The notes under the pieces are model-generated. The model made no database searches, was not told where the DNA came from, and was given only the letters and a program-made list of their open reading frames with translations. The position numbers and the translations under genes were made by a program. A stretch of 63,484 nt of DNA, filler included. It is 4 parts of 4 records of this genome, joined end to end, with 100 filler letters (N's around TTAATTAATTAA, not from the genome) between each part and the next. Parts side by side here need not be neighbours in the genome. Positions count along the whole stretch, not along the records: positions 53,308 to 63,484 come from DRR723986_8367; 3 more parts are not named here. One strand, written 5' to 3'. Shown piece by piece: positions 44,107 to 63,484 of this stretch (position 1 is the stretch's first letter; each line of letters opens with the position of its first letter).

Positions 44107-44191
44107 TCAGGCTCTACCCTCAAATATTGAAATGTACGGATTGGCAGTTTGATCCAATAGCGTCCAAAAAATTATCTGCGTGCTCAATCTG

Positions 44192-45862: not shown

Positions 45863-45889
45863 AAAAAGCCGGACTGAGTCCGGCTTTTT
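45863..45889. terminator. Intrinsic terminator after the flagellar cluster
   Basis: AAAAAGCCGGAC/GTCCGGCTTTTT. Confidence 0.75.
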
Positions 45890-45945
45890 GCCAAATTTCA
45901 CGTAAGCTCACACCTGCTACGGGGAGCTTAGTCAGAGAAAAATTC

Positions 45946-47001: not shown

Positions 47002-47109
47002 AAGATGTTCCCGTCTTGTCAATGAGAAAGAGCCGGGCACTACTTGATTACTTCTCTGCTCACTTTTCAGTCACTAATGAAGCGACGAGATGAAACGAGC
47101 AACATTTGA

Positions 47110-48543: not shown

Positions 48544-48550
48544 CTACGCC

Positions 48551-48904
48551 TCACTTCAAGTTAAAAGCATTTGCCCAGGTCTCACGCAAGTCGCGAATAA
48601 TCACGAGTGCTTCATCATAGCGCTTGCGCATGATGCAGTTCTGGCAATACTCATACATTCGATACAAACGCGTCGCCTGCTCCTGGTACTCAAAATCGAG
48701 TGCCGTCATCAGGGAAGTTAAGACGCGATTCATCTTGGCAATATCTCGCTGACGGCAGGAAACTATGAAGAGATCATACATTTTCAGAATAATCTTTTCG
48801 GCACTCCACTGCTGAACTTCCTGTTCCATGTAGCCGGAGACGGCTTTGCCTGAGGCTCCATCTCCATAAACACGCCGCGCGGCGGCCTGTTGTGCTGGGG
48901 TCAT
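48551..48904 (-). CDS. fliS: Flagellin chaperone FliS-like protein
   Basis: ILKMYD, LMTALDFE, LYRMYEY, LRETW. Confidence 0.8.
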   Translation of the reverse strand: MTPAQQAAARRVYGDGASGKAVSGYMEQEVQQWSAEKIILKMYDLFIVSCRQRDIAKMNRVLTSLMTALDFEYQEQATRLYRMYEYCQNCIMRKRYDEALVIIRDLRETWANAFNLK

Positions 48905-49076
48905 ACGTCCTGTACCTTTGTTTTGTGATAAGGAGCCAAGAAATCCATCTACTCCCCAGAATGCCGGAGGCGGATTTCGATTCTCCGCCTCCGCCATCGT
49001 AATTCATACGGCCGGGAGACACGCGCACTTGCTCAAAGTATATTCCGCAAATCAGCCGTAAAACGGCGATCGCGGC

Positions 49077-49991
49077 TTAACCGAGCAACTGCAAGAAGGT
49101 ATTCGGGTTCTGGTTGGCCTGGGCCAAGGAAATGATCGAGGTCTGCTGCAAGAACTGCGACTTGATCAATTCCAGTTGTTCCTGTGCCACATCAGCATCT
49201 TCAATCCGCGAAATAGCAGCGTTGAAGTTGGTAATCTGTGACTGCAAGGCCGTCTCCTGAGATGAAAGTCGATTCGTAACACCACCAATAAAGGCCGCAA
49301 ACGAGTTGACATTCTCAAGAGCCGTAGAAATGCTGGTTAATGTGGCTCCGATGTTTGACGTCGAAAACACCCCGAGATCTGAGGAGGCTACCGAGCTTAA
49401 GCTCGAAAGGTCCAAGCCAGATACACCGGCAAAGTCAGTATTACTACTCGTGTTAACGTTCGCATAGAACGAATTGGTCGATGATAAGTCTAACCCGAGT
49501 GAGATCAGCGAGTTATCGGCGCTAAACCCAATTACAAAGTCAGAGTTAAACGACCCGCCAATCAGTTCCTGACCACCGAAGACTGTTGAGTCAACGATTG
49601 TCTGAATTTGATCGGTCAGCCGCGAGGCGGCCTGAGCAAGCGATACTTTCTCATCGGTTCCCAATGCGCCGGAGGCGGCAGAAGAAATCGAATCCTTAAT
49701 CTGCGTCAACAGTGAGTTGACGTTGTCGAGACCATCTTGAGCGATTGCGGCGACGTTTTTGGCGTCTCCAACTGCGTTCAAGGCGCTCCGCAGTGATCCA
49801 ACACGTGAGGACAATGAACGCGACGTGATGTAGCCAGCTACATCGTCAGACGCCGAGTTGATGCGTTTACCCGTCGCGAGACGAAGTTGACGCAAGGCGA
49901 GGTTGTCATTGGCCTGAGTGAGAGAGTTAAAAGCATTTTCAGCAGGCGTATTGGTTCCAATACGGCCACCGCCGGATATTGCAGTGGGCAT
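49077..49991 (-). CDS. fliC: Flagellin (304 aa)
   Basis: RLATGKRINSASDD, SRIEDADVAQE, LAQANQ. Confidence 0.95.
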   Translation of the reverse strand: MPTAISGGGRIGTNTPAENAFNSLTQANDNLALRQLRLATGKRINSASDDVAGYITSRSLSSRVGSLRSALNAVGDAKNVAAIAQDGLDNVNSLLTQIKDSISSAASGALGTDEKVSLAQAASRLTDQIQTIVDSTVFGGQELIGGSFNSDFVIGFSADNSLISLGLDLSSTNSFYANVNTSSNTDFAGVSGLDLSSLSSVASSDLGVFSTSNIGATLTSISTALENVNSFAAFIGGVTNRLSSQETALQSQITNFNAAISRIEDADVAQEQLELIKSQFLQQTSIISLAQANQNPNTFLQLLG

Positions 49992-50057
49992 ATTATCCTC
50001 CGCGATTCATCCTTAAATTCAACGAAGGGCATCCTGCCTAAACTGAATCCGTTAATG

Positions 50058-50084
50058 GTATCGGCGCGCCAAAAAGAATCTTGA
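50058..50084 (-). promoter_or_regulatory. Sigma-28 promoter of the downstream flagellin
   Basis: Minus strand TCAA-N15-GCCGATAC. Confidence 0.7.
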
Positions 50085-50203
50085 GTTTTTTTTTCTCCCA
50101 AATCGAATATTTTTTTTGTCAGGCCCCTGACTCATGCGCTCAGAACTGCTCGGCACGCTATGCGGTGGACTATAATGCGCTTGAATTCTATCCCGGTGAC
50201 TAA

Positions 50204-50236
50204 CAAAAAAAGGCTGTTCCCCTCAGGAAACAGCCT
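50204..50236 (-). terminator. Intrinsic terminator after the upstream flagellin
   Basis: AAGGCTGTT hairpin followed by a T7 tract on the minus strand. Confidence 0.7.
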
Positions 50237-50279
50237 TGGTAAGAATGCGATCAGCCACTTAGACCAAGCCCAAAAGAGC

Positions 50280-51197
50280 TTACTGCAGAAGCTGCAGGAA
50301 TGTCTGTGGATTTGAGTTCGCCTGAGCGAGTGAAATGATTGACGTCTGCTGCAAGAACTGAGATTTAATCAACTCAAGCTGCTCCAGTGCCACATCAGCA
50401 TCTTCAATACGAGAGATAGCTGCATTGTAGTTGGTAATCTGCGATTGCAACGCAGTTTCCTGTGAATCAAGACGATTCACAATACCACCAATATATGAGG
50501 CAGTCCGGTTTACATTGTTCAATGCTGTCGAAAGGCTCGTCAGCGTTGAAGCAATCTGGTCGGAGCCAAACACACCCAGATCCGATTCGGAAACTGAGTT
50601 GAGTGCTGAGAGATCAAACCCGGTAACACCAGCAAAGGTTGTATTACTTTCCGAATTGACATCAAAGTAGAAGCTATTGCCGGCTGTAGTCAGGTCAACT
50701 TCAACGGACAGTAGCGAGTTTGTAGCGGAGAAACCAATAACGAAGCTACTTGAGAAGCTACCGTTAATCAGTTCTTCACCACCGAATACGGTAGAATCAA
50801 CCACCGTTTGAATTTGGTCAACAAGTCGCGTGGCAGCCTGTGCCAACGAAACTTTTTCATCCGTTCCCAACGCACCAGAAGCAGCAGTTGAGGCTGCATC
50901 CTTGATTTGTGTCAGAAGCGTATTAATGTTGTCCAACCCATCCTGGGCGATAGCTGCGACGTTCTTGGCATCACCAACAGCATTCAAAGCCGATCGCAAC
51001 GATCCAACACGCGATGAGAGAGCACGAGATGTAATGTATCCCGCGACATCATCGGATGCGGCGTTAATGCGCTTACCTGTAGATAGGCGCAATTGGCGAA
51101 GGGCAATGTTGTTGTTGGCGCCGGTAAGAGCGTTAAATGCGTTTTCCGCCGGTGTATTGGTGCGAATGCGCGCACCACCGCTCAAAGCGCTAGGCAT
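50280..51197 (-). CDS. fliC: Flagellin (305 aa), paralog
   Basis: RLSTGKRINAASDD, SRIEDADVALE, LAQANS. Confidence 0.95.
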   Translation of the reverse strand: MPSALSGGARIRTNTPAENAFNALTGANNNIALRQLRLSTGKRINAASDDVAGYITSRALSSRVGSLRSALNAVGDAKNVAAIAQDGLDNINTLLTQIKDAASTAASGALGTDEKVSLAQAATRLVDQIQTVVDSTVFGGEELINGSFSSSFVIGFSATNSLLSVEVDLTTAGNSFYFDVNSESNTTFAGVTGFDLSALNSVSESDLGVFGSDQIASTLTSLSTALNNVNRTASYIGGIVNRLDSQETALQSQITNYNAAISRIEDADVALEQLELIKSQFLQQTSIISLAQANSNPQTFLQLLQ

Positions 51198-51284
51198 GAC
51201 GTACCTCCATGTACCTCAGTTTGCGATAATCAAAGGAACGGAACCTGCGAGCTTCCCTGCATCATCAGTTTCCGTCTACACCAG

Positions 51285-51311
51285 TAATCGGGAATCCGCA
51301 CTAAATCTTTA
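51285..51311 (-). promoter_or_regulatory. Sigma-28 promoter of the upstream flagellin
   Basis: Minus strand TAAA-N15-CCCGATTA. Confidence 0.65.
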
Positions 51312-51581
51312 GAAAAAAGTTTCGAATTAACCTCAGTTAAGCCCAAAAACATGGATTCGCCGATTGTAGAACTGAATATGCTCATCCAACGTAGTCACCA
51401 GCTGTGGTTTTTCTCCAACAAAAAAGAGCAGCGCCGGCCGCTTTTCAACGGCTAACACTGCTCTTGCGTAAGAGGGGCAGATCACTTCACGCTAACTAAT
51501 AACAGGTCTGCCGTTCAGACAGACCAAAGACCTTGAGACACCGGCTGCAAACGACCGGCGCCTGCCATGCAGGCACCTGAA

Positions 51582-52889
51582 TCAGCGGACTACAAAAGTT
51601 CCGGAGCTGCGCAGCACGCCGCCAATCAATAACTGGTAGGTGTACAGCCCGGCCGCCAAATCTGCCGATCCAGGGCCGCCCAGCGGGATACGCGGGCTGG
51701 TCACGCTGTGACGCCACACAGCTACTCCGCTCGCAGCATACACGTGGAGTTCAGCCGCGCCCAGTCCGGCCGCAATCAGAGATTCAGGCACGCGAAGCAC
51801 TGCGCCGCGCTCAGCCGGGTGTGGCTGGATTTTGAGTGAAGTCTCCGAATCCAATTGTTCGGCAGCCGAAGTCACCTGATTTTGACGCCGGAAGACGCGC
51901 CCGCCATCCGCAAAGACAAAATCATAAGCGGCTCCACCCGGGCAGACACAGATTGCATCCATATCACCTGCAAACGGCGCGGTGCCACGGCTCCAGGTCT
52001 CACCGCCGTCGCTTGTGCGCAGGAATAATCCATCATAACCACAAGCATAACCTTCAAGGCTGTCGCGGAACTGCATGTCCGTGAAATAAAATGAGGATTG
52101 AGCTTCCCAGTTCGTATTCCAGGTGCTGCCGTCGTCGTCGGAGCTGCGCACAAAACCAAACTGTTCCGCAGGTATTGTCCCGCATACAACAATGCGGCCG
52201 CTTGCGAGCAGAAATACGTCAGTGATGTCAGCATTGGCCCCAAAATCATGCACCTGCCGCCAGTTGCGTCCGCCGTCCGTACTCGCCCAGAGTTCAGTCA
52301 TCCTCAGAAAGTTGGGCCCGCCAAGCGCATAAGCAGTCGAAGCATCAGCACGCACCACGTGGCGGTAGACCATTCCGTCCTGTAAACCCGCACCTTTTGC
52401 CCAGTTTTGGCCACCATCAACAGTCGTCAGAATCTGGCCGTCAGTTCCCGACATCATGCCGTCAAGGTCATCAACAAAACTCAAGTCATAGTACTGAAAG
52501 GCGGCGGTTGATCCTTCATCAAAGTATTGCGGGTCCAGATTGTCAAGTCGGTCCCCTTGCAGCAATACACCGGCAGATGGCGTCTGCGCATGGCCCGCAA
52601 TCAGGATCTCATTATTCCCGAGCACCTCAATTGTCTGCAGGTAGGTATCGCGAATCTGCCAGGATTCCCAGGAGTCGCCCCAGTCGGGGCTGTATGCCAC
52701 ATAAGAATGTGGTCCGGGCGTCCAGGCTGCCACAAACAGTTCACCATCGCGACTGCTGCGGACTTCACGCACCTGGGAGTCAAAGCCGGGAATATCAACG
52801 GCTTCCCATTGAGCCTGCGTCGCTGTCGGCCGGCACAGCAAAAGCGCACCGGCCATTATCACAATCAAACTTCGAATTGATATTTGCAT
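51582..52889 (-). CDS. YCF48/BNR-repeat beta-propeller protein with a T9SS-like C-terminal sorting domain
   Basis: Signal peptide AQAQW; repeated S/TxDGGxxW; C-terminal IQPHPA...LAAGLYTYQL. Confidence 0.8.
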   Translation of the reverse strand: MQISIRSLIVIMAGALLLCRPTATQAQWEAVDIPGFDSQVREVRSSRDGELFVAAWTPGPHSYVAYSPDWGDSWESWQIRDTYLQTIEVLGNNEILIAGHAQTPSAGVLLQGDRLDNLDPQYFDEGSTAAFQYYDLSFVDDLDGMMSGTDGQILTTVDGGQNWAKGAGLQDGMVYRHVVRADASTAYALGGPNFLRMTELWASTDGGRNWRQVHDFGANADITDVFLLASGRIVVCGTIPAEQFGFVRSSDDDGSTWNTNWEAQSSFYFTDMQFRDSLEGYACGYDGLFLRTSDGGETWSRGTAPFAGDMDAICVCPGGAAYDFVFADGGRVFRRQNQVTSAAEQLDSETSLKIQPHPAERGAVLRVPESLIAAGLGAAELHVYAASGVAVWRHSVTSPRIPLGGPGSADLAAGLYTYQLLIGGVLRSSGTFVVR

Positions 52890-53068
52890 TGAACAACACA
52901 TGTTATTTCCAGATTCATTAGCATCATAAAGCGACGACCGTTCAGCCCGCGAGCCGGATGTTGTTATCCGCGCTCCAGCCATCCCTGGCGTCAAAGTGCG
53001 AGGCGTCACGGTGCGCCGATGAGTTTGGTACTGGATCCTTTGTGCGTCTCGTAGTTCTTCAGCAAATA

Positions 53069-53207
53069 TCAGTGCACCCGAAACATTCCGGAGTCGAGTA
53101 CTTTTTGGCCACGCAGAACCTGAAACAGATAGACACCAGCGGCATATTCGGCACGCTTCAGTGTTAATTCTGCAATGTTCTGTGGAGCATTCTGTGGAGC
53201 ATTCTGT
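53069..53207 (-). CDS. C-terminal fragment of a second T9SS-like cargo protein
   Basis: Manual translation QNAPQNAPQNIAELTLKRAEYAAGVYLFQVLRGQKVLDSGMFRVH*; 12-bp tandem repeat TTCTGTGGAGCA at the contig end. Confidence 0.55.
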
Positions 53208-53307: not shown

Positions 53308-53337
53308 GGCGGCGGTCCTTTTGGCGGACTTCAAGGG
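53308..53337. repeat. Terminal direct repeat, copy 1 (circular overlap)
   Basis: GGCGGCGGTCCTTTTGGCGGACTTCAAGGG, identical to 63455-63484. Confidence 0.97.
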
Positions 53338-53368
53338 TATCCGCTTCCCAGATCATGCGGGTTTCCAT
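53308..53368 (-). CDS. 5' end of the prohead protease (continues across the circular join at 63454)
   Basis: ATG overlaps the capsid stop (TAATG); reads METRMIWEADTLEVRQKDRR. Confidence 0.85.
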
Positions 53369-54630
53369 TATGCGCGGTCCTGCACACCAGTCAGTTTGAA
53401 GTAGTGTGTCGCGGCCCGTTGGATCAGCACGTCCACAAAGGCGAACATGGTCAGCGCGACCTTGCCCGTTTTGCTTTCGCTGTACGGATCAACCAGCATT
53501 TCAGGACTGCCCCACGTTGGTACATAGGCGTTGTTCGCACCTGCCCCAAAGTAGACAGTAGACGCCCCTTTGTCGGTTACGTCACGCGCCCCACGGGCCG
53601 AAACCTGACTTGACCAGAGAGGGCCAAAGCCTGCGGATTTCAGGCGGTCCAGTTCTGACACGGCGGTGCCACTGATCAGCGTATCGGCAAGGGTTTGATG
53701 CACGATAGGGGCACCTGCAATGCGCACCCCGGCGGGGTCAGACAGCTTTGCCGTTTCCTGAATTTCCGTTGCACGTAGCAGAAAGTCAGAGAAAGACGCC
53801 ACATCATCAAGGGCGGCTGTGCGGCCCCCTGTCAGTACGGTTTCAAAGCCTGCGGGCTGTTCATCGGCACCAGTGCCTTGGAACACGGCAAGGTCAATAC
53901 CTTCACGCAACACCTCAGACAGATCGCGGCGCAAGATCGCTTCAAGGGCGCTGTTCTGTTTGATCGCTTGGCGGGTCAGCAGATAGCGGCCCGTGGCGGT
54001 GTGGATTGCCGGATTGGTTGCCGTGGTGCTGATCGCGGCGGCATCGGCCCCGGCACCTTCAGCAACCCATGACATACCCGTGCCCCCGGTGATTTCAGGG
54101 AAAGAGGGTGCCCCCGTCACCTGCATCACGTTCACGCCAAACCGTTGCGCGGCAGAGCCTTCAAAGAACCGCTCAAGCGCGTTCATTGTGGGGCGGCTGG
54201 CAAGGTTGCCGGATACGTTGGTTGTGGCATCGGTCGCAACATCGGCACGGGTTTCCATAAGGCTTTCCCATGGAAAACGGACGCCTTTTGAACCTTCGCC
54301 GTGGCGCTGTTCAAGTTCGGCAGACACCTCAGCTTCACGGCCCGTCAAAGCCTTGCCATCGGTCAGAGAGGCAACCAGCCCTGACAGATTGTAACTGCGG
54401 CACTCACGTTTAAAATCAGTCTCAGCCTTATCCGGTTCTTTGATTTCGGCACGTTCTGCCCCCTCAATCAGTAGGGCGGCACGTAGTTCAACCTCGCCAC
54501 CTTCATAGGCTTCTGTCAGGGAACGCAGTTCTGTGCGGCCCTCGTCGTTGATTTCATCGGCCTTTTGGATGTTGGCCATTTTCTCACGGCGCTTGCTTTG
54601 CGCCAGTTGGATTTCCTGCGATTTCAACAT
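53368..54630 (-). CDS. HK97-fold major capsid protein with an N-terminal coiled-coil (delta-like) domain
   Basis: WVAEG, LEAILRRDL..LREGIDLAVFQGTG..QPAG, LVDPYSES..G. Confidence 0.9.
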   Translation of the reverse strand: MLKSQEIQLAQSKRREKMANIQKADEINDEGRTELRSLTEAYEGGEVELRAALLIEGAERAEIKEPDKAETDFKRECRSYNLSGLVASLTDGKALTGREAEVSAELEQRHGEGSKGVRFPWESLMETRADVATDATTNVSGNLASRPTMNALERFFEGSAAQRFGVNVMQVTGAPSFPEITGGTGMSWVAEGAGADAAAISTTATNPAIHTATGRYLLTRQAIKQNSALEAILRRDLSEVLREGIDLAVFQGTGADEQPAGFETVLTGGRTAALDDVASFSDFLLRATEIQETAKLSDPAGVRIAGAPIVHQTLADTLISGTAVSELDRLKSAGFGPLWSSQVSARGARDVTDKGASTVYFGAGANNAYVPTWGSPEMLVDPYSESKTGKVALTMFAFVDVLIQRAATHYFKLTGVQDRA

Positions 54631-54697
54631 GTTATGTTTCCTTTTTCGCTTTTATTTCAATGAGTTACGGGGTTTCGTGTGTGGGTTGCCGTTCATT

Positions 54698-55096
54698 TCA
54701 TGGCGGCACCTCAGGCTTGTGCAAAAGTGCTGACTTGTTGTCTGTGCAAATGATTGCACGAGAATTTTCGAAAATAGCGGCGTGATAGGCGCTGCGGCCC
54801 TTCACCTTTGTGCGGCGGGGGATAGAGCGGTCGGCCTTGGTGTGACCTTCCCAGCGTTCCATGCTTGATTTCTTGTTATGGCAGGGGACACAGAGCCATT
54901 GCAGGTTTGCCATATCCTTAGGATCAATGCCTTGTTCCTCGCATTTGGCGCGGCGGATTATGTGATCGGCATGGCCTTTCATGCCCAGAAAGCGGTTGCA
55001 TTTCTCACACCGGAACCCCGCACGTTCTGCCACGGCACGGCGGATGAATTTCCAGTCTGACTCATCAAGGGTTGATCTGTCCTGTTTGCGGGTCAC
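54698..55096 (-). CDS. HNH endonuclease (HK97 gp74-like packaging cofactor)
   Basis: CEKC...ADHII...NLQWLCVPCHNKKS; GTGA-coupled to terL. Confidence 0.9.
   Translation of the reverse strand: MTRKQDRSTLDESDWKFIRRAVAERAGFRCEKCNRFLGMKGHADHIIRRAKCEEQGIDPKDMANLQWLCVPCHNKKSSMERWEGHTKADRSIPRRTKVKGRSAYHAAIFENSRAIICTDNKSALLHKPEVPP
54744..54759 (-). promoter_or_regulatory. Palindromic operator, copy 1
   Basis: GTGCAATCATTTGCAC on the minus strand, about 115 bp upstream of the capsid start. Confidence 0.65.
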
Positions 55097-56619
55097 AACA
55101 CTGTCACCTCGTATTCAGGGGCGGGCGTGTCCATGTTCCGCACAAGGGCAGAACAGGCCAGCACCAAAGCCTGTGCAACATCAATGCGGGCGTGAGCGTG
55201 GGACTTGTCCAATTGCATGGCCCCGGTTGCCGACACCTTCACGTCAGCTTCGCCCATTGACGCTTCCAGCAAGAGGGACCGTTTCAGCTTGGCCTTGCCT
55301 GACAGGAACAAGCGGCGGGTGCCCCTGATATCGGCGTCACCGTCCTTCGGCCCGGTTCCTCTGAAGGTAATTGGCCAATCAATCTTGGCACGGGCCATTG
55401 CTGACCGAAATTCACCATCGCGGTAACGGTCACAAGATACAGACGCCACCGGATGATTGCCTATCAGGGCCACCAGTTCGGGAAGAAATTCGGCCAGATC
55501 GGTGACAGCGCCAGACGTTTCAATCAGTTCACCACGGTTGGCACATTCAAGCCATGTGGTGCCCACCAGATCACGCTTGCCGCGTTGCACAAGGTCAAGA
55601 TCGCCACCACCGGGGAAGGCACCTAGAACCTTGATCAGGCCACTTTCATAGCAGACAGCGGCGGCGGTCATGCTGGACGTGCCCCCAAGGTCAATCCCAA
55701 CGTGGCAGACTTCACCGGGGTCAGGCTCGATCTGATCGCGGTACGCCTTTTGCAGGGGATTAAGTTCAAGCAGCAGTTGCCGCGTAGGTGACAACTGCAT
55801 GTTTAGGTTCCAGACGTTGAAGTCTGTCATGGAGCCTGATTTCTCAGCCTTGCCGTGAGCGTCTTCCATGTACCGATAGGACTTGATTGACCCTAGGCCG
55901 GGGTTGGCCTTGATCCATGTTTCGGGGTCGCTTGGGTCGTCTTCTTTGTCTGCCCCGTAGAGGTGAACGCTTGTGCGGTCATCGGGGTTGTTGATCATGT
56001 CGTTATAGATCGGACTGTCACCACGGGTGCCCGTGATAAACACAGAACCGTCACGGGCGGCGGTTGCATCAAACACGTTTTGCAGGGTTTCGTTTTGACG
56101 GGACAAAAGGCCCGCTTCATCCACCATCGCCAGATCAAGGTTCAAGCCATGCCCCTGAGTTCTGGCACCGGACAAGATACGAAACTCACCGCCCTGAGGG
56201 CCAATCAATGCCCCCGGCTTGGGCTTGTAGCTTAGGTGCAGATCATCCCGGCCCACAAATTCCAGAAGTTCCAGCGCATACTGTGGGACAATCGCGGCAT
56301 GGCCTTCGGTTGGGGCGGTGATCGCGCCCTTGAACCCCGGCAAAAAGATCGGGCTATCCTCGCACATGCGGCCATTCACGATCAGAGCGCACAGCGTGGT
56401 TTTGCCTAGCTTACGCGGCGTGGACAGAATGGTTGTTCGATAGAGGGGGGAGGTGCCTTCTGTGGCGAGATAGTCCCGCACAACATCCAACTGAAACGGC
56501 TCAAGAACCACGGGATTGCCACGGTTGATACCAGCGGGCACCCGAAAAGTATCAGATACCCAATCAGCAAAGAGCGTGATTGAGTCCTTGGGTTTGGGTC
56601 GTTTGAGTATCAGCGCCAT
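55093..56619 (-). CDS. terL: Terminase large subunit (HK97/Terminase_1-like)
   Basis: LEPFQ, Walker A TPRKLGKTT, Walker B MVDEAG, WIKANPGLG, nuclease GIDLG and RIDVAQAL. Confidence 0.92.
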   Translation of the reverse strand: MALILKRPKPKDSITLFADWVSDTFRVPAGINRGNPVVLEPFQLDVVRDYLATEGTSPLYRTTILSTPRKLGKTTLCALIVNGRMCEDSPIFLPGFKGAITAPTEGHAAIVPQYALELLEFVGRDDLHLSYKPKPGALIGPQGGEFRILSGARTQGHGLNLDLAMVDEAGLLSRQNETLQNVFDATAARDGSVFITGTRGDSPIYNDMINNPDDRTSVHLYGADKEDDPSDPETWIKANPGLGSIKSYRYMEDAHGKAEKSGSMTDFNVWNLNMQLSPTRQLLLELNPLQKAYRDQIEPDPGEVCHVGIDLGGTSSMTAAAVCYESGLIKVLGAFPGGGDLDLVQRGKRDLVGTTWLECANRGELIETSGAVTDLAEFLPELVALIGNHPVASVSCDRYRDGEFRSAMARAKIDWPITFRGTGPKDGDADIRGTRRLFLSGKAKLKRSLLLEASMGEADVKVSATGAMQLDKSHAHARIDVAQALVLACSALVRNMDTPAPEYEVTVL

Positions 56620-56643
56620 GCTGTGTGCCTGTGCGGTTGTTTC

Positions 56644-57023
56644 GTGACATTTCGACAGGTCAGGGTTGGAGGGGGTGACGCACTCGCAATGAGTTTAGCC
56701 CGTTCCACTCCGATAGACGTGAGCCGGGTTCTCCTTACCCGGCAGGGGTCTCCAAGGTGTCGAAATGCCACTAAGAACCGGGACGGATAAGGAAACTGCT
56801 CGCAACCTTGATCAGCCCCGCCAGACTATCGCGCTAGGAGTAATAGCTAACAGGCTGGCGGCACCTAGTGACAGGTCTGATTTAACATAACATGGATTAT
56901 GGGGCAACACTTGATCTCTGGTCGCGGGTGCTGATCAGATAGGTTGGTGCCCCTGCTATCAACTTGGACGCAAACGCCTGAAGGTCAAGTTGATAGGTAT
57001 GGGGCACCATCTCAAAACTATCA
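56644..57023 (-). ncRNA. Densely structured non-coding region upstream of terL
   Basis: 14-bp stem 56644-56657/56758-56771 enclosing inner stems; stem 56818-56824/56855-56861; long hairpin 56945-57009. Confidence 0.45.
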
Positions 57024-57094
57024 GGGAGCCAACAGACTTGAGAGAGCCTTATCTTTACCATCCCCACCCCATGCTTGCAACTGTCTGTGTGTCT

Positions 57095-57110
57095 GTGCAA
57101 TCATTTGCAC
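57095..57110 (+). promoter_or_regulatory. Palindromic operator, copy 2
   Basis: GTGCAATCATTTGCAC in the divergent promoter region, 28 bp before the ATG at 57138. Confidence 0.7.
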
Positions 57111-57137
57111 GAACATACGCCAACAGGAGGTTTTGGC

Positions 57138-57335
57138 ATGTCTAAGGTTGATTGGTCACAGGTACAGCGTGGACGGTTCAAGAACGCGACAGTGCGGCCT
57201 AACACTCAGCCGTTCAATCTGCGGGTGCGGTTAACACCAACAGAAATGGACAGACTGAGGGACGTGGCAGCATTGGAGCAAACCACCATGGGCGATATTG
57301 CTGCAAAGCTGTTGTTGTCCTACCTAGACGACTAG
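57138..57335 (+). CDS. Small ribbon-helix-helix-like DNA-binding protein (65 aa)
   Basis: AGGAGG RBS; LRVRLTPTEMDRLRDVAALEQTTMGDIAAKLL. Confidence 0.7.
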   Translation: MSKVDWSQVQRGRFKNATVRPNTQPFNLRVRLTPTEMDRLRDVAALEQTTMGDIAAKLLLSYLDD

Positions 57336-57338
57336 GCC

Positions 57339-57587
57339 TTAACCTTGGTCTTCACCCATCAAGAAAATCCAGACCTTTATATAAACCCAACTGATCACAA
57401 AAAAGGTCGGTCCGTAGATCACGACGAAAAAGACCCGATCCATGAAGTCTGACAGGCTGTATCGCCCAGTTCGTTCTAGGTAGATCATCTCGGCGGCTTC
57501 ACCCACTGGCACTAGAACGTTCTGGCCAAGCATGATCAAAGTGAGAAGCCAGCATATTATGAATACAGTTGCTAGTAGACCTCGCAA
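57339..57587 (-). CDS. Small two-TM membrane protein
   Basis: Two hydrophobic segments; last gene of the par operon. Confidence 0.55.
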   Translation of the reverse strand: MRGLLATVFIICWLLTLIMLGQNVLVPVGEAAEMIYLERTGRYSLSDFMDRVFFVVIYGPTFFVISWVYIKVWIFLMGEDQG

Positions 57588-57602
57588 ACTTCCCAGCCTT
57601 CC

Positions 57603-57878
57603 TCAATATCCCTTTGACGTCAGAAAATCCTCAAGCAGAGCCTTGACCACGGCACCCTTGCTGATCTGGTGATCTGTGCTGAATTTCTTGAACCGTTGTG
57701 ACAGGCTTGGACTTACATCAACAGTCAGGCGCACCGTGCCTTCTGACTTAGCTTGTGCGGCCTCTTTCAGGGCTGTTGTGAGTGTTGTGCCCTCAATGTG
57801 CTGCACGTCACCTAGATGGCGCTGTGCGGCCTTCTTGTCATAGGTCGGTGCGGATTTGGTTTGCAGTGCTTTAGCCAT
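57603..57878 (-). CDS. ParG-like RHH partition adaptor
   Basis: Flexible N-tail plus VRLTVDVSPSLSQRFKKFS...VVKALLEDFL; overlaps the parA stop. Confidence 0.75.
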   Translation of the reverse strand: MAKALQTKSAPTYDKKAAQRHLGDVQHIEGTTLTTALKEAAQAKSEGTVRLTVDVSPSLSQRFKKFSTDHQISKGAVVKALLEDFLTSKGY

Positions 57879-58494
57879 GTTCCAGACACTCCTTTGTCAG
57901 GTTGGTTATTTCGCGGCGGGCTGGACTGATCGGTGCCCATTCCTGAATTGTCAGGGCTTGGCTGGACGCCTCAGCATGGGCAACACGCTCATGCACGATT
58001 GTGTTTGCCATTGGCAGATCAGGCCACGCTATCGCGTTGTTGATATTGAGATTGGCCCGCACACGGCTTTTCACCATGAGCAAGGGGATAGGTTCGCCCC
58101 GTTCTTGTTCGGCCCATCTTAACTGTTCCTCAGTCATGGCGGTGCCCCATGCGTCCAGACCAGACGCCGGAACCGGAATAATCACCAGATCGGCCAACAG
58201 AATGCAGGTTGCCGCCAGTTCATCACCACGGGGCGGTGCGTCGATCACAACGGCGGTGTTTGGATCATCCTGCATCAGGGCTTTGATTTGAAACGCCAGC
58301 GTGTCGTTTGGCAGGTGCCAGACAGTGAACGGCGCGGGTTCATCCCTGAGGGTGTTCCATGTGTTGATTGATCCTTGGGGGTCAGCGTCAATCAGGACAA
58401 CCTCCCTGCCCTGCCCCGCCAGTTCACCAGCAAGGGCCAGAGACAGGCTAGACTTGCCCGTGCCACCCTTAGAATTGACCACTGTCCAGATCAT
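57871..58494 (-). CDS. parA: ParA/ParF-type (Ib) partition ATPase
   Basis: KGGTGKS, LIDADPQGS, VIDAPP, ADLVIIPV; 207 aa, no N-terminal HTH. Confidence 0.92.
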   Translation of the reverse strand: MIWTVVNSKGGTGKSSLSLALAGELAGQGREVVLIDADPQGSINTWNTLRDEPAPFTVWHLPNDTLAFQIKALMQDDPNTAVVIDAPPRGDELAATCILLADLVIIPVPASGLDAWGTAMTEEQLRWAEQERGEPIPLLMVKSRVRANLNINNAIAWPDLPMANTIVHERVAHAEASSQALTIQEWAPISPARREITNLTKECLEHG

Positions 58495-58500
58495 TCTAAA

Positions 58501-58845
58501 TCACTCCGGTGATAACTGAATTATTTCTGTTACGAACAAGTCTCTACCATGTCCCCTAAAGAGAAATTCACCTCTGAATGTCGCAGTGCATGGCCCTTTG
58601 TGTTCACAAGCAATAATCCGTTGATATTTTGACGGCGACATACCGCTTTTAAGGTCGAAGAAGTATGTCTCTGAGTCATGATCCACGGTAAAAAAAAGTC
58701 CCGCGAGACCCTCACTGACCATTCCCGTAAAAACAACCTCTTGGCCATTTACGTGTGCAAGAAACCCTTGAATGTCCAAGGCTGTATCATCGGCATATAC
58801 TGGACTTGTAAGGCATAAGGCGATTGCTGTGATTAGGCGTTTCAT
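58501..58845 (-). CDS. Exported hypothetical protein
   Basis: Signal peptide MKRLITAIALCLTSPVYA; GGAGGG RBS; more AT-rich than its neighbours. Confidence 0.65.
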   Translation of the reverse strand: MKRLITAIALCLTSPVYADDTALDIQGFLAHVNGQEVVFTGMVSEGLAGLFFTVDHDSETYFFDLKSGMSPSKYQRIIACEHKGPCTATFRGEFLFRGHGRDLFVTEIIQLSPE

Positions 58846-58908
58846 GTCTACCCTCCATGGTGCGACTTGGCCAGCTTACGCCAGCCATGTTGTTTGCACA
58901 AGACAATC

Positions 58909-58930
58909 ACCGTGCAATCATTTGCACGGT
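58909..58930. promoter_or_regulatory. Palindromic operator, copy 3
   Basis: ACCGTGCAA-TCAT-TTGCACGGT with perfect 9-bp arms, upstream of the par operon. Confidence 0.7.
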
Positions 58931-58933
58931 AGA

Positions 58934-59167
58934 TCATAGACAGCTCACAATGGGGGACCGGGGTTCACGCTCACACTCGTAAACCTTGCCTTGATAGACC
59001 ACCAAGATTGTCCATGTGCCTAAGTTCACGTCTTCTGGTCTGCGGTCAGCAGGCACAAACTGTGAGGCAACAACTTTGCCTTCTCCCAAAATCTCAGCGG
59101 ATGATGCAGCAAGGGTGACCGTGGGAAGGCTCAGCAGAGCCGTGGCTAAAACGGTTCTCAAAATCAT
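58934..59167 (-). CDS. Small exported hypothetical protein
   Basis: Signal peptide MILRTVLATALLSLPTVTLA; AAGGAA RBS; C-terminal Cys pair. Confidence 0.6.
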   Translation of the reverse strand: MILRTVLATALLSLPTVTLAASSAEILGEGKVVASQFVPADRRPEDVNLGTWTILVVYQGKVYECEREPRSPIVSCL

Positions 59168-59242
59168 GGTTCAGTTTTCCTTTTCTAGGGCGGGGTTCTT
59201 AGCTCGTTTCATGGGGATTTGTCTTGCCCGCATAGGGCAGGG

Positions 59243-59482
59243 TCATTGGTGCCTCTTTGGTTCGTTGTTTTTCTTGGGATCGGTCAACATTTCTTCCATC
59301 GGCATGGTGTGGATCATCCTCAGGTGCATTTCGATCAGATGGCGGATTGCTACCCTGTGGTGCCATCCCATGCCCTCGCAATAGTTCATCCAAGCGGCTT
59401 TCATGTTCTCGGACATTTTCACCGTGGTCAGGGTTTCACCAGCAGAGCCGGACAAGTCGGGGGGGCTGTGTCGGTCGCTCAT
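59243..59482 (-). CDS. Small putative RHH/CopG-like protein
   Basis: ATGA-coupled to rep; TTVKMSENMKAAW...AIRHLIEMHL beta-alpha-alpha pattern. Confidence 0.5.
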   Translation of the reverse strand: MSDRHSPPDLSGSAGETLTTVKMSENMKAAWMNYCEGMGWHHRVAIRHLIEMHLRMIHTMPMEEMLTDPKKNNEPKRHQ

Positions 59483-60507
59483 CCTTGGAACCCCTTCACC
59501 GCCATCGCCACGGCCTTTTCCTGTTTCTTAGCCTGTGACAGATCAGACAGGTTGCCCGGTTTAGGCTCTATCAGGGTCTGTTCCGTGGTGCCCGGTCCCG
59601 TGCAATTATCGGTCAAATTTTGGGGGGGTTCGCCGGGGGCTTTCTCTTCAAAGTCTTTCTCGGAAACCGAGATTTGAGCGTTTATCTTTACCTTAGGTTT
59701 AAGGTTTATAGGTTTATCTTTAATACAGTGTATCACTGCTGATACATTTTTAGACTGTATCACTGCTGATACGTTTGAAGCGGGTGACGTATCACTGCTG
59801 ATACATTTGGTTTCGTCAGCATCAGAGTTATCCACAACCTCAGTTGAGGCTTGAACCTCAGCCCGTGCCCGTTCCATTGCCTCAGTCAGTTCGGTGTGCA
59901 TCACAGCAGGTTCACGGCCCCCATATGCCAGCAGGGTAGACAGCACTAAGCCCCTCAAAGGCTGGACCGTTTGATCCTCTGGAAACATGGCGGCTTTCAA
60001 AAAGGCACCCTGTGTTTCGTCCTTGGTTTTCTGGAATACGATCAAGGCATGTATCCATTCCATGACAGCCCATGCCCCGGCAGTTGGTCGCCAGTGTGTT
60101 ACCTTGCGTTTGCTGTTGCGGTTGGTCTGCGTGATCCTGCGTTCACAGGTTTCCAGAACGCCCACATGCACCAACAGGTTCTTTGCTGCGCCTACCTTTT
60201 GCCTATCTGCAAAACCTAGATCATCGGCAATTTCATCCTGTGTCAGATACAGCCAAGGGATTTCCCCCATGTGTTGCAGGGTCTTTGATGCAAGGGCGTG
60301 ACGCCTCAGGATATAGGCCAGCACGGCCCGCACCGCTTCTGTGTTTACAGGGCGGGCACCTTTGCGCGGGAACGTCTTATGATCTGGTGTTAACAGGGTG
60401 ATCATACGTTCCGAAAACTCAGGAAAATTCCAAAGTTGGGGGAACGGATATTTCCGCACTGCATCCTGTTGTTGTTGCTTAAACGGGTTCGGGTTCTTCA
60501 AAGCCAT
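59479..60507 (-). CDS. Putative replication initiator (winged-HTH)
   Basis: HTH LTQDEIADDLGFADRQKVGAAKNLL..GVLE; GAGGTG RBS; internal iterons and DnaA box. Confidence 0.7.
   Translation of the reverse strand: MALKNPNPFKQQQQDAVRKYPFPQLWNFPEFSERMITLLTPDHKTFPRKGARPVNTEAVRAVLAYILRRHALASKTLQHMGEIPWLYLTQDEIADDLGFADRQKVGAAKNLLVHVGVLETCERRITQTNRNSKRKVTHWRPTAGAWAVMEWIHALIVFQKTKDETQGAFLKAAMFPEDQTVQPLRGLVLSTLLAYGGREPAVMHTELTEAMERARAEVQASTEVVDNSDADETKCISSDTSPASNVSAVIQSKNVSAVIHCIKDKPINLKPKVKINAQISVSEKDFEEKAPGEPPQNLTDNCTGPGTTEQTLIEPKPGNLSDLSQAKKQEKAVAMAVKGFQG
59680..59836. other. Putative replication origin inside rep
   Basis: AT-rich tract 59680-59729; three GTATCACTGCTGATAC copies (59730, 59757, 59789); DnaA box TTATCCACA at 59828-59836. 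Confidence 0.75.
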
Positions 60508-60551
60508 GTTGGCACCTCATTTTTTTGGTGCGGCTATGACGTCGATGTACC

Positions 60552-60665
60552 TTGAAACGCGCCCCCTTATGGGTTAGTTAGGGGCTGTATAGGGCGGAAG
60601 CTTTCGACGTCTAACCGCTTATTTCAGAGACCCTCGCACGCCAATGCGGGGGTTTCGCTTTTCTA
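60552..60665 (+). ncRNA. Candidate counter-transcribed antisense RNA upstream of rep (promoter included)
   Basis: TTGAAA-N17-TAGTTA; GCGG/CCGC stem; hairpin 60627-60656 with plus-strand G-U pairs, then a T-rich tail. Confidence 0.5.
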
Positions 60666-60721
60666 GGGGTAACGCAAAACCTTGTGTTTGTCACCCCGGT
60701 TCAAACTAAACTATGTGCCAA

Positions 60722-60976
60722 TCACCAGACAATGTGCAGCGTTTCCAGCTTGGGCAATAGGTCTTGCAACTTTTGGTAGGCCACATGCTCAAGGGTGTTT
60801 GTGCTGTAGGCATGAGCAATCTTGCGCAGTTCAAACAGATCAGCCTCAGACAAGCCTGCGTCTAACAGTTCACGGGTTCTGTTTTTCAGCATAAATTCCA
60901 ACAGTTTAGCAAGATCATCGCCGTTACCCTGCACCTGATCTGTGCAAAGTGACATAGGTATGTCAGTTCGTTTCAT
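60722..60976 (-). CDS. Hypothetical helical protein, last gene of the head operon
   Basis: ATGA-coupled to the upstream gene; 84 aa. Confidence 0.6.
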   Translation of the reverse strand: MKRTDIPMSLCTDQVQGNGDDLAKLLEFMLKNRTRELLDAGLSEADLFELRKIAHAYSTNTLEHVAYQKLQDLLPKLETLHIVW

Positions 60977-61368
60977 AGCGTGTTGTTCCTGATTGTTGGG
61001 GCGTCATCTGGCGACAAGGCATTGCAGTCATACCGGACAGAAACCGCCATCGCGTCAGACGAATGCAAACCGTTGATCACGTACAAAGCCCCGTCCAGCA
61101 TGATCATTGCCACGCCGTTTGGTGGCGACTCAGACAGCACAGAAAGCACGTGTGAACCTGTGTAAGCCTCAGCATTGGTGAACAGTGTTTCTTTGGTCCG
61201 GTCCACATAGCCAAAGGTTTCTTCGGCCAGATCAAACTGCAATTCACCTTCGGCTGTGTAGACAGTGGCACCATTATCATGTGCCACCGTGTAGACATTT
61301 GCCCGTTTGTACGCGGGATTGTGCTTTGCGGCCCGTTTCATCATTTGCAGGGGGGATAGCTTAGTCAT
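60973..61368 (-). CDS. Putative head-closure/adaptor protein
   Basis: Size, beta-rich sequence (LDGALYVING) and position right after the portal; function inferred. Confidence 0.5.
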   Translation of the reverse strand: MTKLSPLQMMKRAAKHNPAYKRANVYTVAHDNGATVYTAEGELQFDLAEETFGYVDRTKETLFTNAEAYTGSHVLSVLSESPPNGVAMIMLDGALYVINGLHSSDAMAVSVRYDCNALSPDDAPTIRNNTL

Positions 61369-62374
61369 CGGTCCACCCCGCCAGCTTCATAGCCCTTTCC
61401 AGAGGCACCCCGGCCTTGGTCAGTACACCCACGGCACGAGCGCGGCCCGCCACGTCAGCGGACATCATTCCGTCAAGGCTCAAACCAGACACGCCCAGCT
61501 TGCGCTTGAGTTCCGGTGTGATCTGACGTGCCAGCGGCTTCACCGTTTGCAGGGCAAACAGTCGATAGGCTTCACGCATAGCACCCGCGTTGCCGCTTGA
61601 GGTCAGAAGGGCAGGGGGCAGGCCGCAAGCGGTCATAATGCGCGTATTCAGATCATCGGTGAATTTGTTGGCGTCCAGCTTTTGCAGATCGGGTGTCAGT
61701 TCCACCCGCCTCATTTCTGAACGTTCACCGCCTGTCTGGTGCGCAAAATCAGCCTTTGACGTGACCACGGCCAAGGAACCGGATTGCAGGCCAGATAGAG
61801 CCTTGTCCTTTTCTTCTTTGGCAATGCTGGCGGGCATGGGCAGGAACCCTTTACCAGCCATCGGCATGGCCCCTGACACAGCGTTCTCGATCTCAGCCAA
61901 CAGGGTAGGGGATAGGCCCATAAGCTGAAACGGGGAACGGCCCCGCCATGGCTGTTGAGGGTGCGGATTGATCACCAGCTTGATCACCTCAGGTTCCAAT
62001 GCCCTGACAGTCTCAGTGTTGTTCACGCGGGCAATGTGCAGATGATACTTGCCGTTTCCGAGTTCATCCCAATAGGCCACGGGCACAAGGTCCAGTTCGC
62101 CTTGTGTCAGGCGGATATGCCAACAGCTTTCACCTTTCATCAAAAGATCATGCCCAATCTGCGCCATGGTATTGGCGGGCAGGGGTTCGGGGGCAACGTC
62201 CAGCATGGCAAAGGCAGACTGCCAATAATGGGCAGCGGTTGCGACAGATGCAGACAGGGCAACGTGATCCTGTGACAGCAAGCCTTTGCGGCGTTGGTTC
62301 ACATAGTCCAGCGTAAGGCCAGAGAATGCCCGTTGCTCAAGATCGGGGGCAGGTTTGGGTTTGAACGGCCACAT
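61361..62374 (-). CDS. Phage portal protein (short HK97-like)
   Basis: MWPF..LEQR start, DLLMKGE, WRGRSP, IMTACGLPPALL, TVKPLARQI..EL. Confidence 0.85.
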   Translation of the reverse strand: MWPFKPKPAPDLEQRAFSGLTLDYVNQRRKGLLSQDHVALSASVATAAHYWQSAFAMLDVAPEPLPANTMAQIGHDLLMKGESCWHIRLTQGELDLVPVAYWDELGNGKYHLHIARVNNTETVRALEPEVIKLVINPHPQQPWRGRSPFQLMGLSPTLLAEIENAVSGAMPMAGKGFLPMPASIAKEEKDKALSGLQSGSLAVVTSKADFAHQTGGERSEMRRVELTPDLQKLDANKFTDDLNTRIMTACGLPPALLTSSGNAGAMREAYRLFALQTVKPLARQITPELKRKLGVSGLSLDGMMSADVAGRARAVGVLTKAGVPLERAMKLAGWTDD

Positions 62375-62937
62375 TACAGGCGCACCTCGCTTGTCAGCAT
62401 TGCACCCGCACCAGAACCGTACATCACGCCCATGACAGCCTCACGTGAGAATGACGTGTCACCAGCGGATTGGCTCTTAAACTCACGGCGCACAGGGGCG
62501 TTGATCAACTGATACAGCGCCAGATTGGTGACAGCCTGGACAACCTCAGCGGACGGGGTACGCCCTGCCACTGTGCCCGTTTGTGTCAGGCGGTAGGTGG
62601 TATGGGTTTCAAGGTCCACAAGGCCAAGTTCGGCAACGTACAGGGCAGAGTTTGCCACCCATGAACCGCCAAGCAAGATTTCCACCGTGATTGCAGCGGG
62701 GAACGGGTGGCGCGGCCATTGGTAGGTGTCAAAGCCGGATGTGGTCAGAACCACCTTCCCGGCTGTAATCGGGCGATAGCTGCGGTTTGTGAACGCCTCT
62801 ACCTGTGCCCATGCGGTGCTGATCATGGCTTGCGCCTCAGCTTCTGTGCAATCGGCCTCTAGGGCAATGTCGGTTGCCACAGGGCTTGCCGGATTAGCGC
62901 CAAGGGTGAACGTGGTTTCTAGGTTCGTAATTCTCAT
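62374..62937 (-). CDS. Head-tail connector (gp6-like)
   Basis: AWAQVEAFTNRS and VVQAVTNLALY helices flanking a beta insert; ends LTSEVRL. Confidence 0.65.
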   Translation of the reverse strand: MRITNLETTFTLGANPASPVATDIALEADCTEAEAQAMISTAWAQVEAFTNRSYRPITAGKVVLTTSGFDTYQWPRHPFPAAITVEILLGGSWVANSALYVAELGLVDLETHTTYRLTQTGTVAGRTPSAEVVQAVTNLALYQLINAPVRREFKSQSAGDTSFSREAVMGVMYGSGAGAMLTSEVRL

Positions 62938-63484
62938 GGCAGAATGATCCTTTGCGGCTTGGGTTGCTGGAAATTCATGGCCCGCAATTCGGCTTCTGCG
63001 TCCTGATAGGCTGGACGGGTAACAAGGCTAAGTTCGTACAGAACCAGCTGCGCCAAGGTGCGGATCATCACGGACGGGTTGCCGGGTTCTGGCACCAACT
63101 TTTCAGCATCGGGCACCACGTCTTTGGGGGGCACCTTGAAACCGGGTGAAACCCCACGGATCAAGCCTGCGCCAATCATTGCAAGGGCGTCTGTCACGTG
63201 GGTTGCACGTTCTGCCCCTTCGGGAATGGTGGCGATAAACTCAAGAAAGTCTTCTGTGTCTTTCAGGGTCAATGTGCCTGCCAGTTTTGAGGCAAGCGGC
63301 CTATCAAAGCTGTGCCCCAACAGCAGATTGATTTCCCGTTTGGGATCACCAAGGGCGTAGCTAAACGCCCCCGGCAGTATCGTTTCCTTACGGACTGTGC
63401 CCCTGTCACTCAGGACAGCCAAAGCCTTGTAAGGGAACCGCCCCGCAATGATCGGGCGGCGGTCCTTTTGGCGGACTTCAAGGG
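62934..63484 (-). CDS. HK97-family prohead protease (193 aa when joined across the circle)
   Basis: ETILPGAF, LLLGH, GTLTL, GVSPGF, LYELSLVTRPAY. Confidence 0.92.
   Translation of the reverse strand, partial: LEVRQKDRRPIIAGRFPYKALAVLSDRGTVRKETILPGAFSYALGDPKREINLLLGHSFDRPLASKLAGTLTLKDTEDFLEFIATIPEGAERATHVTDALAMIGAGLIRGVSPGFKVPPKDVVPDAEKLVPEPGNPSVMIRTLAQLVLYELSLVTRPAYQDAEAELRAMNFQQPKPQRIILP
63455..63484. repeat. Terminal direct repeat, copy 2
   Basis: Identical to 53308-53337. Confidence 0.97.

Follow-up and report, generated by a model that had tools for sequence, protein, structure and literature searches.

A 10-kb circle that joins phage head genes to plasmid partition genes: a probable episomal capsid-forming satellite of an alphaproteobacterial head lineage

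The stretch of DNA considered here, which is referred to as the window, comprises 63,484 nucleotides (nt) in four contigs with N spacers between them (positions 1-15446, 15547-42068, 42169-53207 and 53308-63484). The present account concerns the fourth of these contigs (DRR723986_8367), which closes into a circle of 10,147 bp and is probably an episomal satellite that forms its own capsids. The head genes of the circle make up the same block that is found in a group of integrated islands of the Rhodobacterales, and a partition and replication module stands in the place of the integrase, the HTH_17 regulator and the initiator genes of those islands, and the element may therefore be seen as the alphaproteobacterial counterpart of the capsid-forming satellite-plasmids (cf-PISP) of Vibrio. 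The original prediction, which was made from the sequence of the contig, assumed that chromosomal islands are the only known form of capsid-forming satellite, an assumption that is by now outdated, given the cf-PISP described for Vibrio crassostreae in the available text of PMC13230959. The lifestyle as such is thus already in print, and the evidence presented below suggests a variant of it that derives from an independent alphaproteobacterial head lineage.

The contig itself may be summarized in a single line:

53308-63484, no strand, the whole fourth contig, 10,177 bp with a G+C content of 0.545, in which positions 53308-53337 repeat positions 63455-63484

The terminal 30 bases are identical at the two ends, and it is this exact overlap that yields the circle of 10,147 bp. 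An overlap of 30 is what an assembler working with 31-letter words leaves on a closed path. Given that the same trace could come from an island with a 30-bp repeat on either side, the join itself was examined. The frame of the prohead protease stays open across the join, with an ATG that overlaps the stop codon of the capsid gene (TAATG), and the spacing of approximately 32 nt from capsid to protease is also that of the island relative L002, by arithmetic from the alignment coordinates. In all four of the public sequencing runs compared, moreover, a contig of 93-97% identity bridges position 63454 to position 53308 and extends 224 letters or more to either side. These bridging contigs are those of relatives of the element, and they cover the capsid and the part from the protease to the stopper, while the large terminase (TerL) is covered in run X7 only; the best public run contains 16% of the words of the element in the word screen. 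As the frame is open and the join is bridged, the two ends of the contig correspond to an arbitrary cut inside a conserved operon, and not to attachment sites, and the closure that had been predicted holds for the sequence. The contig is thus probably a small episome of 10,147 bp, its closure being read from the overlap of its ends.

The first of the two modules of the circle, of about 6.6 kb, consists of eight genes, all of them intact, which are transcribed in the order TerL, HNH endonuclease, major capsid protein, prohead protease, adaptor, short portal, stopper and a gene of 84 amino acids (aa). Their positions in the window are as follows:

53368-54630, minus strand, HK97-type major capsid protein, 420 aa (PF05065, 48.8 bits; phrog_617, E 1e-19; TIGR01554; 54-90% identity to the island copies)
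54698-55096, minus strand, HNH endonuclease of 132 aa, whose gene overlaps the end of that of TerL (PF01844, 27.9 bits; phrog_333, E 2e-17)
55093-56619, minus strand, large terminase TerL, 508 aa (phrog_9, E 8e-56; PF20441 nuclease domain, 64.4 bits; 55-69% identity to the island copies)
60722-60976, minus strand, conserved last gene of the head block, 84 aa (aligned with five island copies at 20-34% identity)
60973-61368, minus strand, predicted stopper or head-closure protein, 131 aa, here orf131 (by its predicted fold)
61361-62374, minus strand, short portal, 337 aa (PF04860, 35.9 bits, below the cutoff of 39.1; phrog_12)
62374-62937, minus strand, head-tail adaptor, 187 aa (phrog_442, E 1e-4; 40-60% conserved in the islands)
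62934-63484 and across the join, with the start at 53368-53366, minus strand, prohead serine protease (S78), 193 aa in total (PF04586, 64.9 bits; phrog_80)

The head inventory of the original prediction (TerL, HNH, capsid, protease, connector and portal) is therefore borne out by family matches, including that of the portal, which falls below its cutoff and is supported by the Protein Data Bank (PDB), where its profile matches the chain 9i8c_A (“Phage portal protein”, 338 aa) at E 7e-5. Its length of 337 aa is unusually low for a portal and is repeated in all of the relatives, and 9i8c_A, for which the literature search gave no paper, is the only PDB sequence that the portal profile matches. 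The TerL is 27% identical to that of HK97, and no entry in PLSDB or in the phage records exceeds this value. In the case of the 84-aa gene, neither a Pfam or PHROG family nor a usable entry of the protein atlas was matched, and the PDB sequence searches with the profiles of the adaptor and of the stopper returned no match.

The closure protein that had been called probable is supported at the level of structure. An AlphaFold (AF2) model of orf131, built from eight homologues, has a pLDDT of 82.6, and its best Foldseek rows are neck and stopper chains. In VIA-align, the entries ranked 1-31 are all phage or phage-like, and all of them are neck, connector, stopper or virion entries except for the sixth, a structural-genomics protein; the best match is the connector complex of SPP1 (Z 7.2, rmsd 3.6, with 103 of 109 residues aligned). 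As these Z values are moderate, the assignment to the stoppers rests on the consistency of the list and on the position of the gene.

No scanned open reading frame (ORF) of the circle matched an integrase or recombinase, tail, tape-measure or endolysin family in Pfam, PHROGs or NCBIfam, as had been predicted, and no holin family was matched in the same three collections, a hydrophobic ORF of 82 aa being a possible holin. All ORFs of more than 152 aa belong to the annotated genes, which leaves no coding room for a set of tail and lysis genes. An HTH_17 or AlpA-type regulator was not matched in the ORFs of the circle either, and small ORFs that resemble ribbon-helix-helix proteins are present instead.

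The relatives of the circle were gathered through the TerL protein, and comprise four genome loci of the Rhodobacterales, one IMG/VR provirus, metagenome contigs and two further genomes. In all nine of the relatives compared by tblastn, the genes of the head block follow the order of the circle as far as each locus reaches, with the locus L092 ending within the adaptor. The protein identities, beyond those listed above for TerL and the capsid, are 54-69% for the portal and 38-90% over the core genes, and are lower for the stopper, and the lengths of the head-block proteins are those of the island homologues. The 84-aa gene was found in four relatives by tblastn and in L001 by alignment.

In the ten relatives with flanking sequence, a tyrosine integrase above the Pfam cutoff lies 2-4 kb upstream of TerL in eight, while L004 has an integrase match below the cutoff together with DUF6538, and L087 is cut by the end of its contig on the integrase side. 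A tRNA gene stands at the edge of the island in 9/10 of these relatives, and direct repeats of the end of the tRNA, which are 10.4-11.1 kb apart, were found in six of the seven tRNA-adjacent relatives tested, two of these repeats being short (14 and 17 nt); this search for attachment (att) repeats left out the islands L112 and L113. Between the integrase and TerL, some islands carry an HTH_17 gene (excisionase or AlpA-type) and some carry initiator-like genes (phrog_270, 345 and 678), while none of the non-head genes of the circle was matched in the islands. The circle is the only member of the family seen with a ParA and without an integrase. [quoted passage not shown]

A wider protein search gave 101 TerL clusters at E <= 1e-80. 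The rows named by organism belong to roseobacter genera or to bins of the Rhodobacterales or Rhodobacteraceae in 13 of 14 cases (the assignment to the order was checked for Albibacillus only), and the family occurs in 5 of the 401 Rhodobacterales genomes sampled. By our own count, the longest contig measures 10.0-11.2 kb in 17 of the 101 clusters and 9-13 kb in 28 of them, and the closest TerL (P0001, 71%) lies on a contig of 10,022 nt. Such contigs of unit length may be free circles or islands cut out at their att repeats in the assembly graph, and they are treated here as a lead and not as evidence. The literature search returned no paper that joins phage satellites to the Rhodobacterales or PICIs to the capsids of the Rhodobacteraceae, and none that describes these islands.

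Two further observations concern individual islands. In L004, L002 and L087, two genes are inserted between the HNH gene and the capsid gene (in L004 at 11868-13045, with products of 176 and 216 aa that have no Pfam match), and this insertion resembles a slot for cargo within the head operon. The TerL of L101 (G324:C3:284739-286217) has an in-frame TAG, and this copy may be decaying, with the integrase and a tRNA-Ser gene still nearby.

The head block is a mosaic. The capsid of the circle is 89% identical to those of L002 and L087, whose TerL is only 58% identical, and its TerL is 69% identical to that of L001, whose capsid is at 58%; in the runs X1-X3, the capsid and the part from the protease to the stopper are 96-97% alike, and TerL and HNH are not present at an identity of at least 85%. 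In the run X7, an algae metagenome, a contig of approximately 140-fold depth joins position 54175 to position 55253 with the loss of 1,077 bp. This deletion removes the 5' part of the capsid gene, the HNH gene and the 3' end of TerL, and fuses the capsid and TerL genes, and the contig represents either a defective but abundant relative or a collapse of the assembly.

These observations bear on an unlikely alternative, in which a cryptic small plasmid would have captured the head block of a roseobacter island, with the block persisting as cargo or as a decaying remnant and the element having lost, or never having had, mobility in capsids. The conflicting identities to L001, L002 and L087 show that the block clearly recombines, the deletion in X7 implies that defective copies exist, and neither a small terminase nor a helper was found, all of which would suit a captured block. 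On the other hand, all eight genes are intact and have the lengths of their island homologues, the 10.15 kb of the circle is near the 10.4-11.1 kb of the islands, as expected if the capsid constrains the size, and a single palindrome, described below, precedes both the capsid gene and the partition operon, which suggests a shared regulation.

The second module, of about 3.5 kb, consists of a ParA, its ParG-like partner, an orphan Rep-like gene with iterons, and small ORFs, among them putative regulators and three genes without an assigned function:

57138-57335, plus strand, ORF of 65 aa, the only gene on this strand, ribbon-helix-helix-like by eye from its sequence pattern, a candidate repressor
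57339-57587, minus strand, hydrophobic protein of 82 aa, identified as an ORF only
57603-57878, minus strand, ParG-like ribbon-helix-helix protein, 91 aa, downstream of ParA (phrog_582, Arc-like repressor, E 0.0016)
57871-58494, minus strand, ParA partition ATPase, 207 aa, small and of type Ib by its size (NF041546, 146.9 bits against a cutoff of 180; phrog_164, E 4e-35; PF13614/PF01656)
58501-58845, minus strand, protein of 114 aa with a signal-peptide-like N-terminus, identified as an ORF only
58934-59167, minus strand, protein of 77 aa with a signal-peptide-like N-terminus, identified as an ORF only
59243-59482, minus strand, protein of 79 aa that overlaps the end of the Rep-like gene, identified as an ORF only
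59479-60507, minus strand, orphan protein of 342 aa, a candidate replication initiator (weak sequence signals)
59660-59808, no strand, candidate origin within the Rep-like gene, made up of three 26-nt iterons of the repeat family D2 (59724-59808) and, after them, an A+T-rich stretch

The ParA/ParG-like pair of the original prediction is supported by the matches to NF041546, phrog_164 and phrog_582. The ParA is at most 40% identical to plasmid ParAs, with its nearest relative anywhere at 73%, and the place of the 91-aa protein after parA is the arrangement seen in ParA/ParG plasmids. Five small ORFs of the rest of the circle had no family match in the Pfam, PHROG and defence-system scans, and the 65-aa ORF had none in Pfam or PHROG; those of 114, 77 and 82 aa may be cargo.

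The prediction of a winged-helix Rep with an internal origin holds in one part only. Iterons are indeed found inside the gene, in its 3' part, at 77-100% identity to each other and with spacings of 27 and 32 nt, while the identity of the protein as a Rep is weak, the protein being an orphan whose fold prediction failed. Its signals consist of a weak match of residues 85-128 to phrog_9773 (replication initiation, O-like; E 0.0022), a language-model atlas that leads to the HTH_36, Phage_rep_O and RepL clusters, and a pairwise alignment in which residues 80-129 weakly match the initiator-like protein of the island L001 (E 0.026). The iterons and the A+T-rich stretch have the layout of a candidate iteron origin within an initiator gene, which gives weak support to the Rep assignment. 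Phage lambda has a similar layout, with its origin inside gene O. Replication is the weakest part of the present account, and the iterons are more telling than the weak matches of the protein.

The content of this module is also what speaks to a quite unlikely alternative, which is that the circle is a transient form, such as an intermediate of replication or excision, or virion DNA that is concatemeric or joined at cos, and not a stable plasmid. A closure read from a 30-bp overlap cannot separate a plasmid from a concatemer or a circularized packaged genome, and members of the family often assemble as stand-alone contigs, as in the 17 of 101 TerL clusters cited above. No integrase or recombinase is encoded, though, which leaves no route into or out of a chromosome, and the ParA/ParG-like pair and the iteron origin would make sense only for stable episomal inheritance. 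The stand-alone contigs argue neither way, given that islands flanked by repeats of 43-49 bp also yield contigs of 10-11 kb.

A 16-bp palindrome, GTGCAA-N4-TTGCAC, is shared by the two modules. It occurs three times in the window, each time in the circle, against an expectation of 0.39, and none of 100 shuffled sequences reached three copies. These copies, and a further non-coding motif, are placed as follows:

54744-54759, no strand, first copy of the palindrome, upstream of the capsid gene
57095-57110, no strand, second copy, some 30 nt upstream of the start codon (ATG) of the 65-aa ORF on the plus strand, on the TerL side
58912-58927, no strand, third copy, upstream of the orf114-parA-parG operon and part of a 10-pair hairpin
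56690-56765, minus strand, non-coding motif that includes a hairpin and lies about 100 nt upstream of TerL, an aligned block and a candidate cos or control site

The presence of the same palindrome before the capsid gene and before the par operon suggests that the two modules share their regulation, and a putative small repressor could tie the expression of the head genes to the plasmid functions. In the loose contig ends of the relatives X1-X3, the capsid gene is likewise directly preceded by a similar palindrome. Exact copies are rare in the islands, where only L001 (two copies) and L003 (one copy) have them among the distinct relatives (a third locus with the palindrome, L097, is the same region as L001 and was not counted apart), and the palindrome was rejected as a feature of the whole family for this reason. 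The hairpin motif upstream of TerL was found by a regular-expression scan in the window and in 5/9 relatives, and it has no match in Rfam. Full CtrA-type sites (TTAA-N7-TTAA) number zero in the window, which is uninformative, given that 0.23 would be expected.

The palindrome bears in addition on the very remote case of an assembly chimera, in which the head and plasmid blocks would come from different molecules joined at short shared words. The junctions between the blocks (at about 56.6-57.3 kb and 60.5-60.7 kb) are seen in this assembly alone, and the assembly may be a mixed one, as its first contig is 64-83%, and its second 98%, like the genome G001. Such an origin would nevertheless require two separate false joins, and the palindrome is present in both blocks. 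The G+C content is also even along the contig, at 0.52-0.56, and all of the genes except one lie on the minus strand, tightly spaced.

Scans of the circle as a whole added little. Rfam gave no match, PADLOC gave no defence family save one row at chance level, and the promoter and terminator counts equal those of shuffled sequences. The search for similar circles that the original prediction had proposed found no match to the circle DNA in PLSDB, and the exact proteins of the circle are absent from a collection of 15 billion proteins.

If the circle is an episomal satellite, its life cycle can be outlined as follows. The element would be inherited vertically as a partitioned plasmid, as its ParA, ParG-like protein and iterons suggest, with its head genes presumably silenced by a small repressor bound at the thrice-occurring palindrome. 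Growth of a helper phage would then lead to the expression of the head genes, after which TerL and HNH may cut at a cos-type site, and one genome length would be packed into the small capsid made by the element itself. The pairing of HNH with TerL is known from HK97-type phages. It is from this pairing, and from the narrow size range of the family (10.1-11.1 kb), that we infer the packaging of unit lengths at a cos-type site. By analogy with the cf-PICIs, the adaptor and the stopper would close the head and dock tails made by the helper, and the lysis brought about by the helper would free the particles.

A highly unlikely variant of this cycle dispenses with the helper phage, the circle being a transfer agent that takes its tails and lysis from a gene transfer agent (GTA) of the host, or that delivers its DNA by tailless heads. 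GTAs are common in roseobacters, to which the named records of the family are confined (13/14 rows), and the model of the stopper does align to a GTA virion chain (Z 5.7). That chain, on the other hand, ranks 20th among many phage stoppers of similar or higher Z, the profiles of the stopper and the adaptor give no second copy in any of the five island-bearing genomes, and the gene order departs from the usual series of terminase, portal, protease and capsid. The suggestion of a GTA as the tail donor, made in the original prediction, thus finds no support.

The other contigs of the window offer some information on the host. The second (15547-42068) is 98% identical to the chromosome of G001, while the first (1-15446), with genes for a sugar ABC transporter and nos genes, resembles G001 at 64-83% only and has its best matches, at about 80-83%, in plasmids of the Rhodobacterales. 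This disparity implies that the assembly may derive from more than one organism or include several accessory replicons. The third contig (42169-53207) has 11 kb and a G+C content of 0.506, with nearly all of its long ORFs on the minus strand and with an SSB and a methyltransferase among its products; it is absent from G001 and from PLSDB, no phage structural family was matched in the ten ORFs scanned, and it probably represents a further mobile element, not a helper phage. The alphaproteobacterial host guessed in the original prediction is plausible for the circle, and either the assembly is mixed, with the circle coming from a roseobacter, or the plasmid form has moved a roseobacter satellite into another order.

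A number of results weigh against the view of the circle as an episomal satellite. The genome G001 is without the circle, and the TerL family was found in none of the 151 kin of G001 sampled and in none of the 401 genomes of its order. No helper was found, the stopper and adaptor profiles matching only the island's own copy in all five island-bearing genomes. The plasmid half was found in no other run or database searched, so that its two junctions with the head block are attested by a single assembly. The 342-aa Rep-like protein has no homologue, either among 5.8 billion clusters in a word-indexed search or among 1.84 billion representatives searched exhaustively with HMMER, and its single-sequence AlphaFold model, with a pLDDT of 40, is unusable for a fold search. 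Finally, no ORF of the circle and no scanned ORF of the islands matched a small terminase (TerS) family. Small terminases are diverse, and one could be present among the ORFs of 53-84 aa. Given that none is recognizable, the family may show another way of choosing the DNA that is packaged.

The interest of an episomal satellite of this kind lies in its origin. The proposal of satellite-plasmids dates only from 2025-26 and comes from a single Vibrio population, and if a separate alphaproteobacterial origin is true, then the combination of plasmid and capsid would be a recurrent lifestyle and not a peculiarity of Vibrio. The most far-reaching version of this idea, which must be considered speculative and of low probability, is that satellite-plasmids arose independently in the Alphaproteobacteria when a head-only satellite of roseobacters exchanged the tRNA integrase that it had carried for a module of partition and replication. 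It would thereby have escaped the limits of its att site and of its host, so as to reside now in a cell of another order, with the host GTA as a possible tail donor, which would make it the first GTA satellite. The data also indicate that head-only islands make up a family of considerable size among marine roseobacters. Integrated and episomal forms that share one head block are, in addition, a natural pair for comparing the costs of integration and partition and for studying how a size of about 10 kb is enforced.

Among the known systems, the closest is TG54, the cf-PISP of Vibrio crassostreae, which is described as a circular element of 15.8 kb with parA and repA and without tail genes or an integrase, and for which relatives were found by its authors only in Vibrio (PMC13230959, Nat Commun 2026, in the available text; preprint 10.1101/2025.10.10.681744). 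In our literature search, the term “satellite-plasmid” occurred in the sense of phage satellites only in the Vibrio work. Going by the available description, TG54 is a small extrachromosomal element, as the circle probably is, and both of them lack tail genes and an integrase and carry parA, rep (a candidate one in the circle), capsid, portal, protease, adaptor, closure protein, HNH and terminase genes, and the lifestyle proposed is the same for the two, with inheritance as a plasmid and own capsids on helper tails; the helper-driven transfer of TG54 is likewise only proposed in that text (PMC13230959). They differ in size (15.8 and 10.1 kb), in the cf-PICI gene order and the two terminase subunits of TG54, and in its Stl-like and ProQ/FinO-like regulators and extra tyrosine recombinase, this comparison being one by description only. 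As far as that account goes, TG54 clusters with the cf-PICIs of gammaproteobacteria, whereas the head block of the circle comes from the islands of the Rhodobacterales; the capsid of the circle has only three records in PLSDB, none of them from Vibrio.

In the case of the cf-PICIs, the satellite census counts 969 elements, all but three of them chromosomal, with a median size of 14 kb (PMC10085698, in the part available). The circle resembles these elements, by its gene content, in having HNH, TerL, portal, protease, capsid, adaptor and connector genes and no tail or holin matches, and differs from them in being non-chromosomal and smaller, and in the absence of an integrase, an AlpA-type gene and a recognized TerS. 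The usual order of head genes is terminase, portal, protease, capsid, adaptor and connector, from which the order of the circle (TerL, HNH, capsid, protease, adaptor, portal, stopper) departs. The integrated relatives in the Rhodobacterales are like the cf-PICIs in their integrase, HTH_17 regulator and initiator-like gene and in the same left-to-right logic. These islands share with the circle the head block, its order and a similar size, and are distinguished from it by the integrase, the HTH_17 gene, the initiator-like gene and the tRNA att repeats, in the place of which the circle has the ParA, the ParG-like protein and the iteron-bearing Rep-like gene. The pairing of cf-PICI logic with plasmid maintenance that was originally put forward is therefore sustained insofar as the same head block is found in tRNA islands with integrases, and it is not new in kind, given the cf-PISP.

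Two other types of element combine some of these traits. P4, a satellite with a genome of about 11-12 kb, is able to live on as a plasmid and uses the virion parts of a helper; it has an integrase, and it encodes neither a capsid nor a portal nor a terminase. Where it is found in genomes, P4 is nearly always integrated, according to the available part of PMC10085698. The circle would resemble P4 in being a small satellite that persists as a plasmid and uses virion parts of a helper, and differs from it in having head genes. The phage-plasmids P1 and N15, for their part, are full phages, tens of kb in size, that carry tail and lysis genes, and the circle, while it likewise unites structural and partition genes on one episome, has no matches to genes of either of these two kinds.

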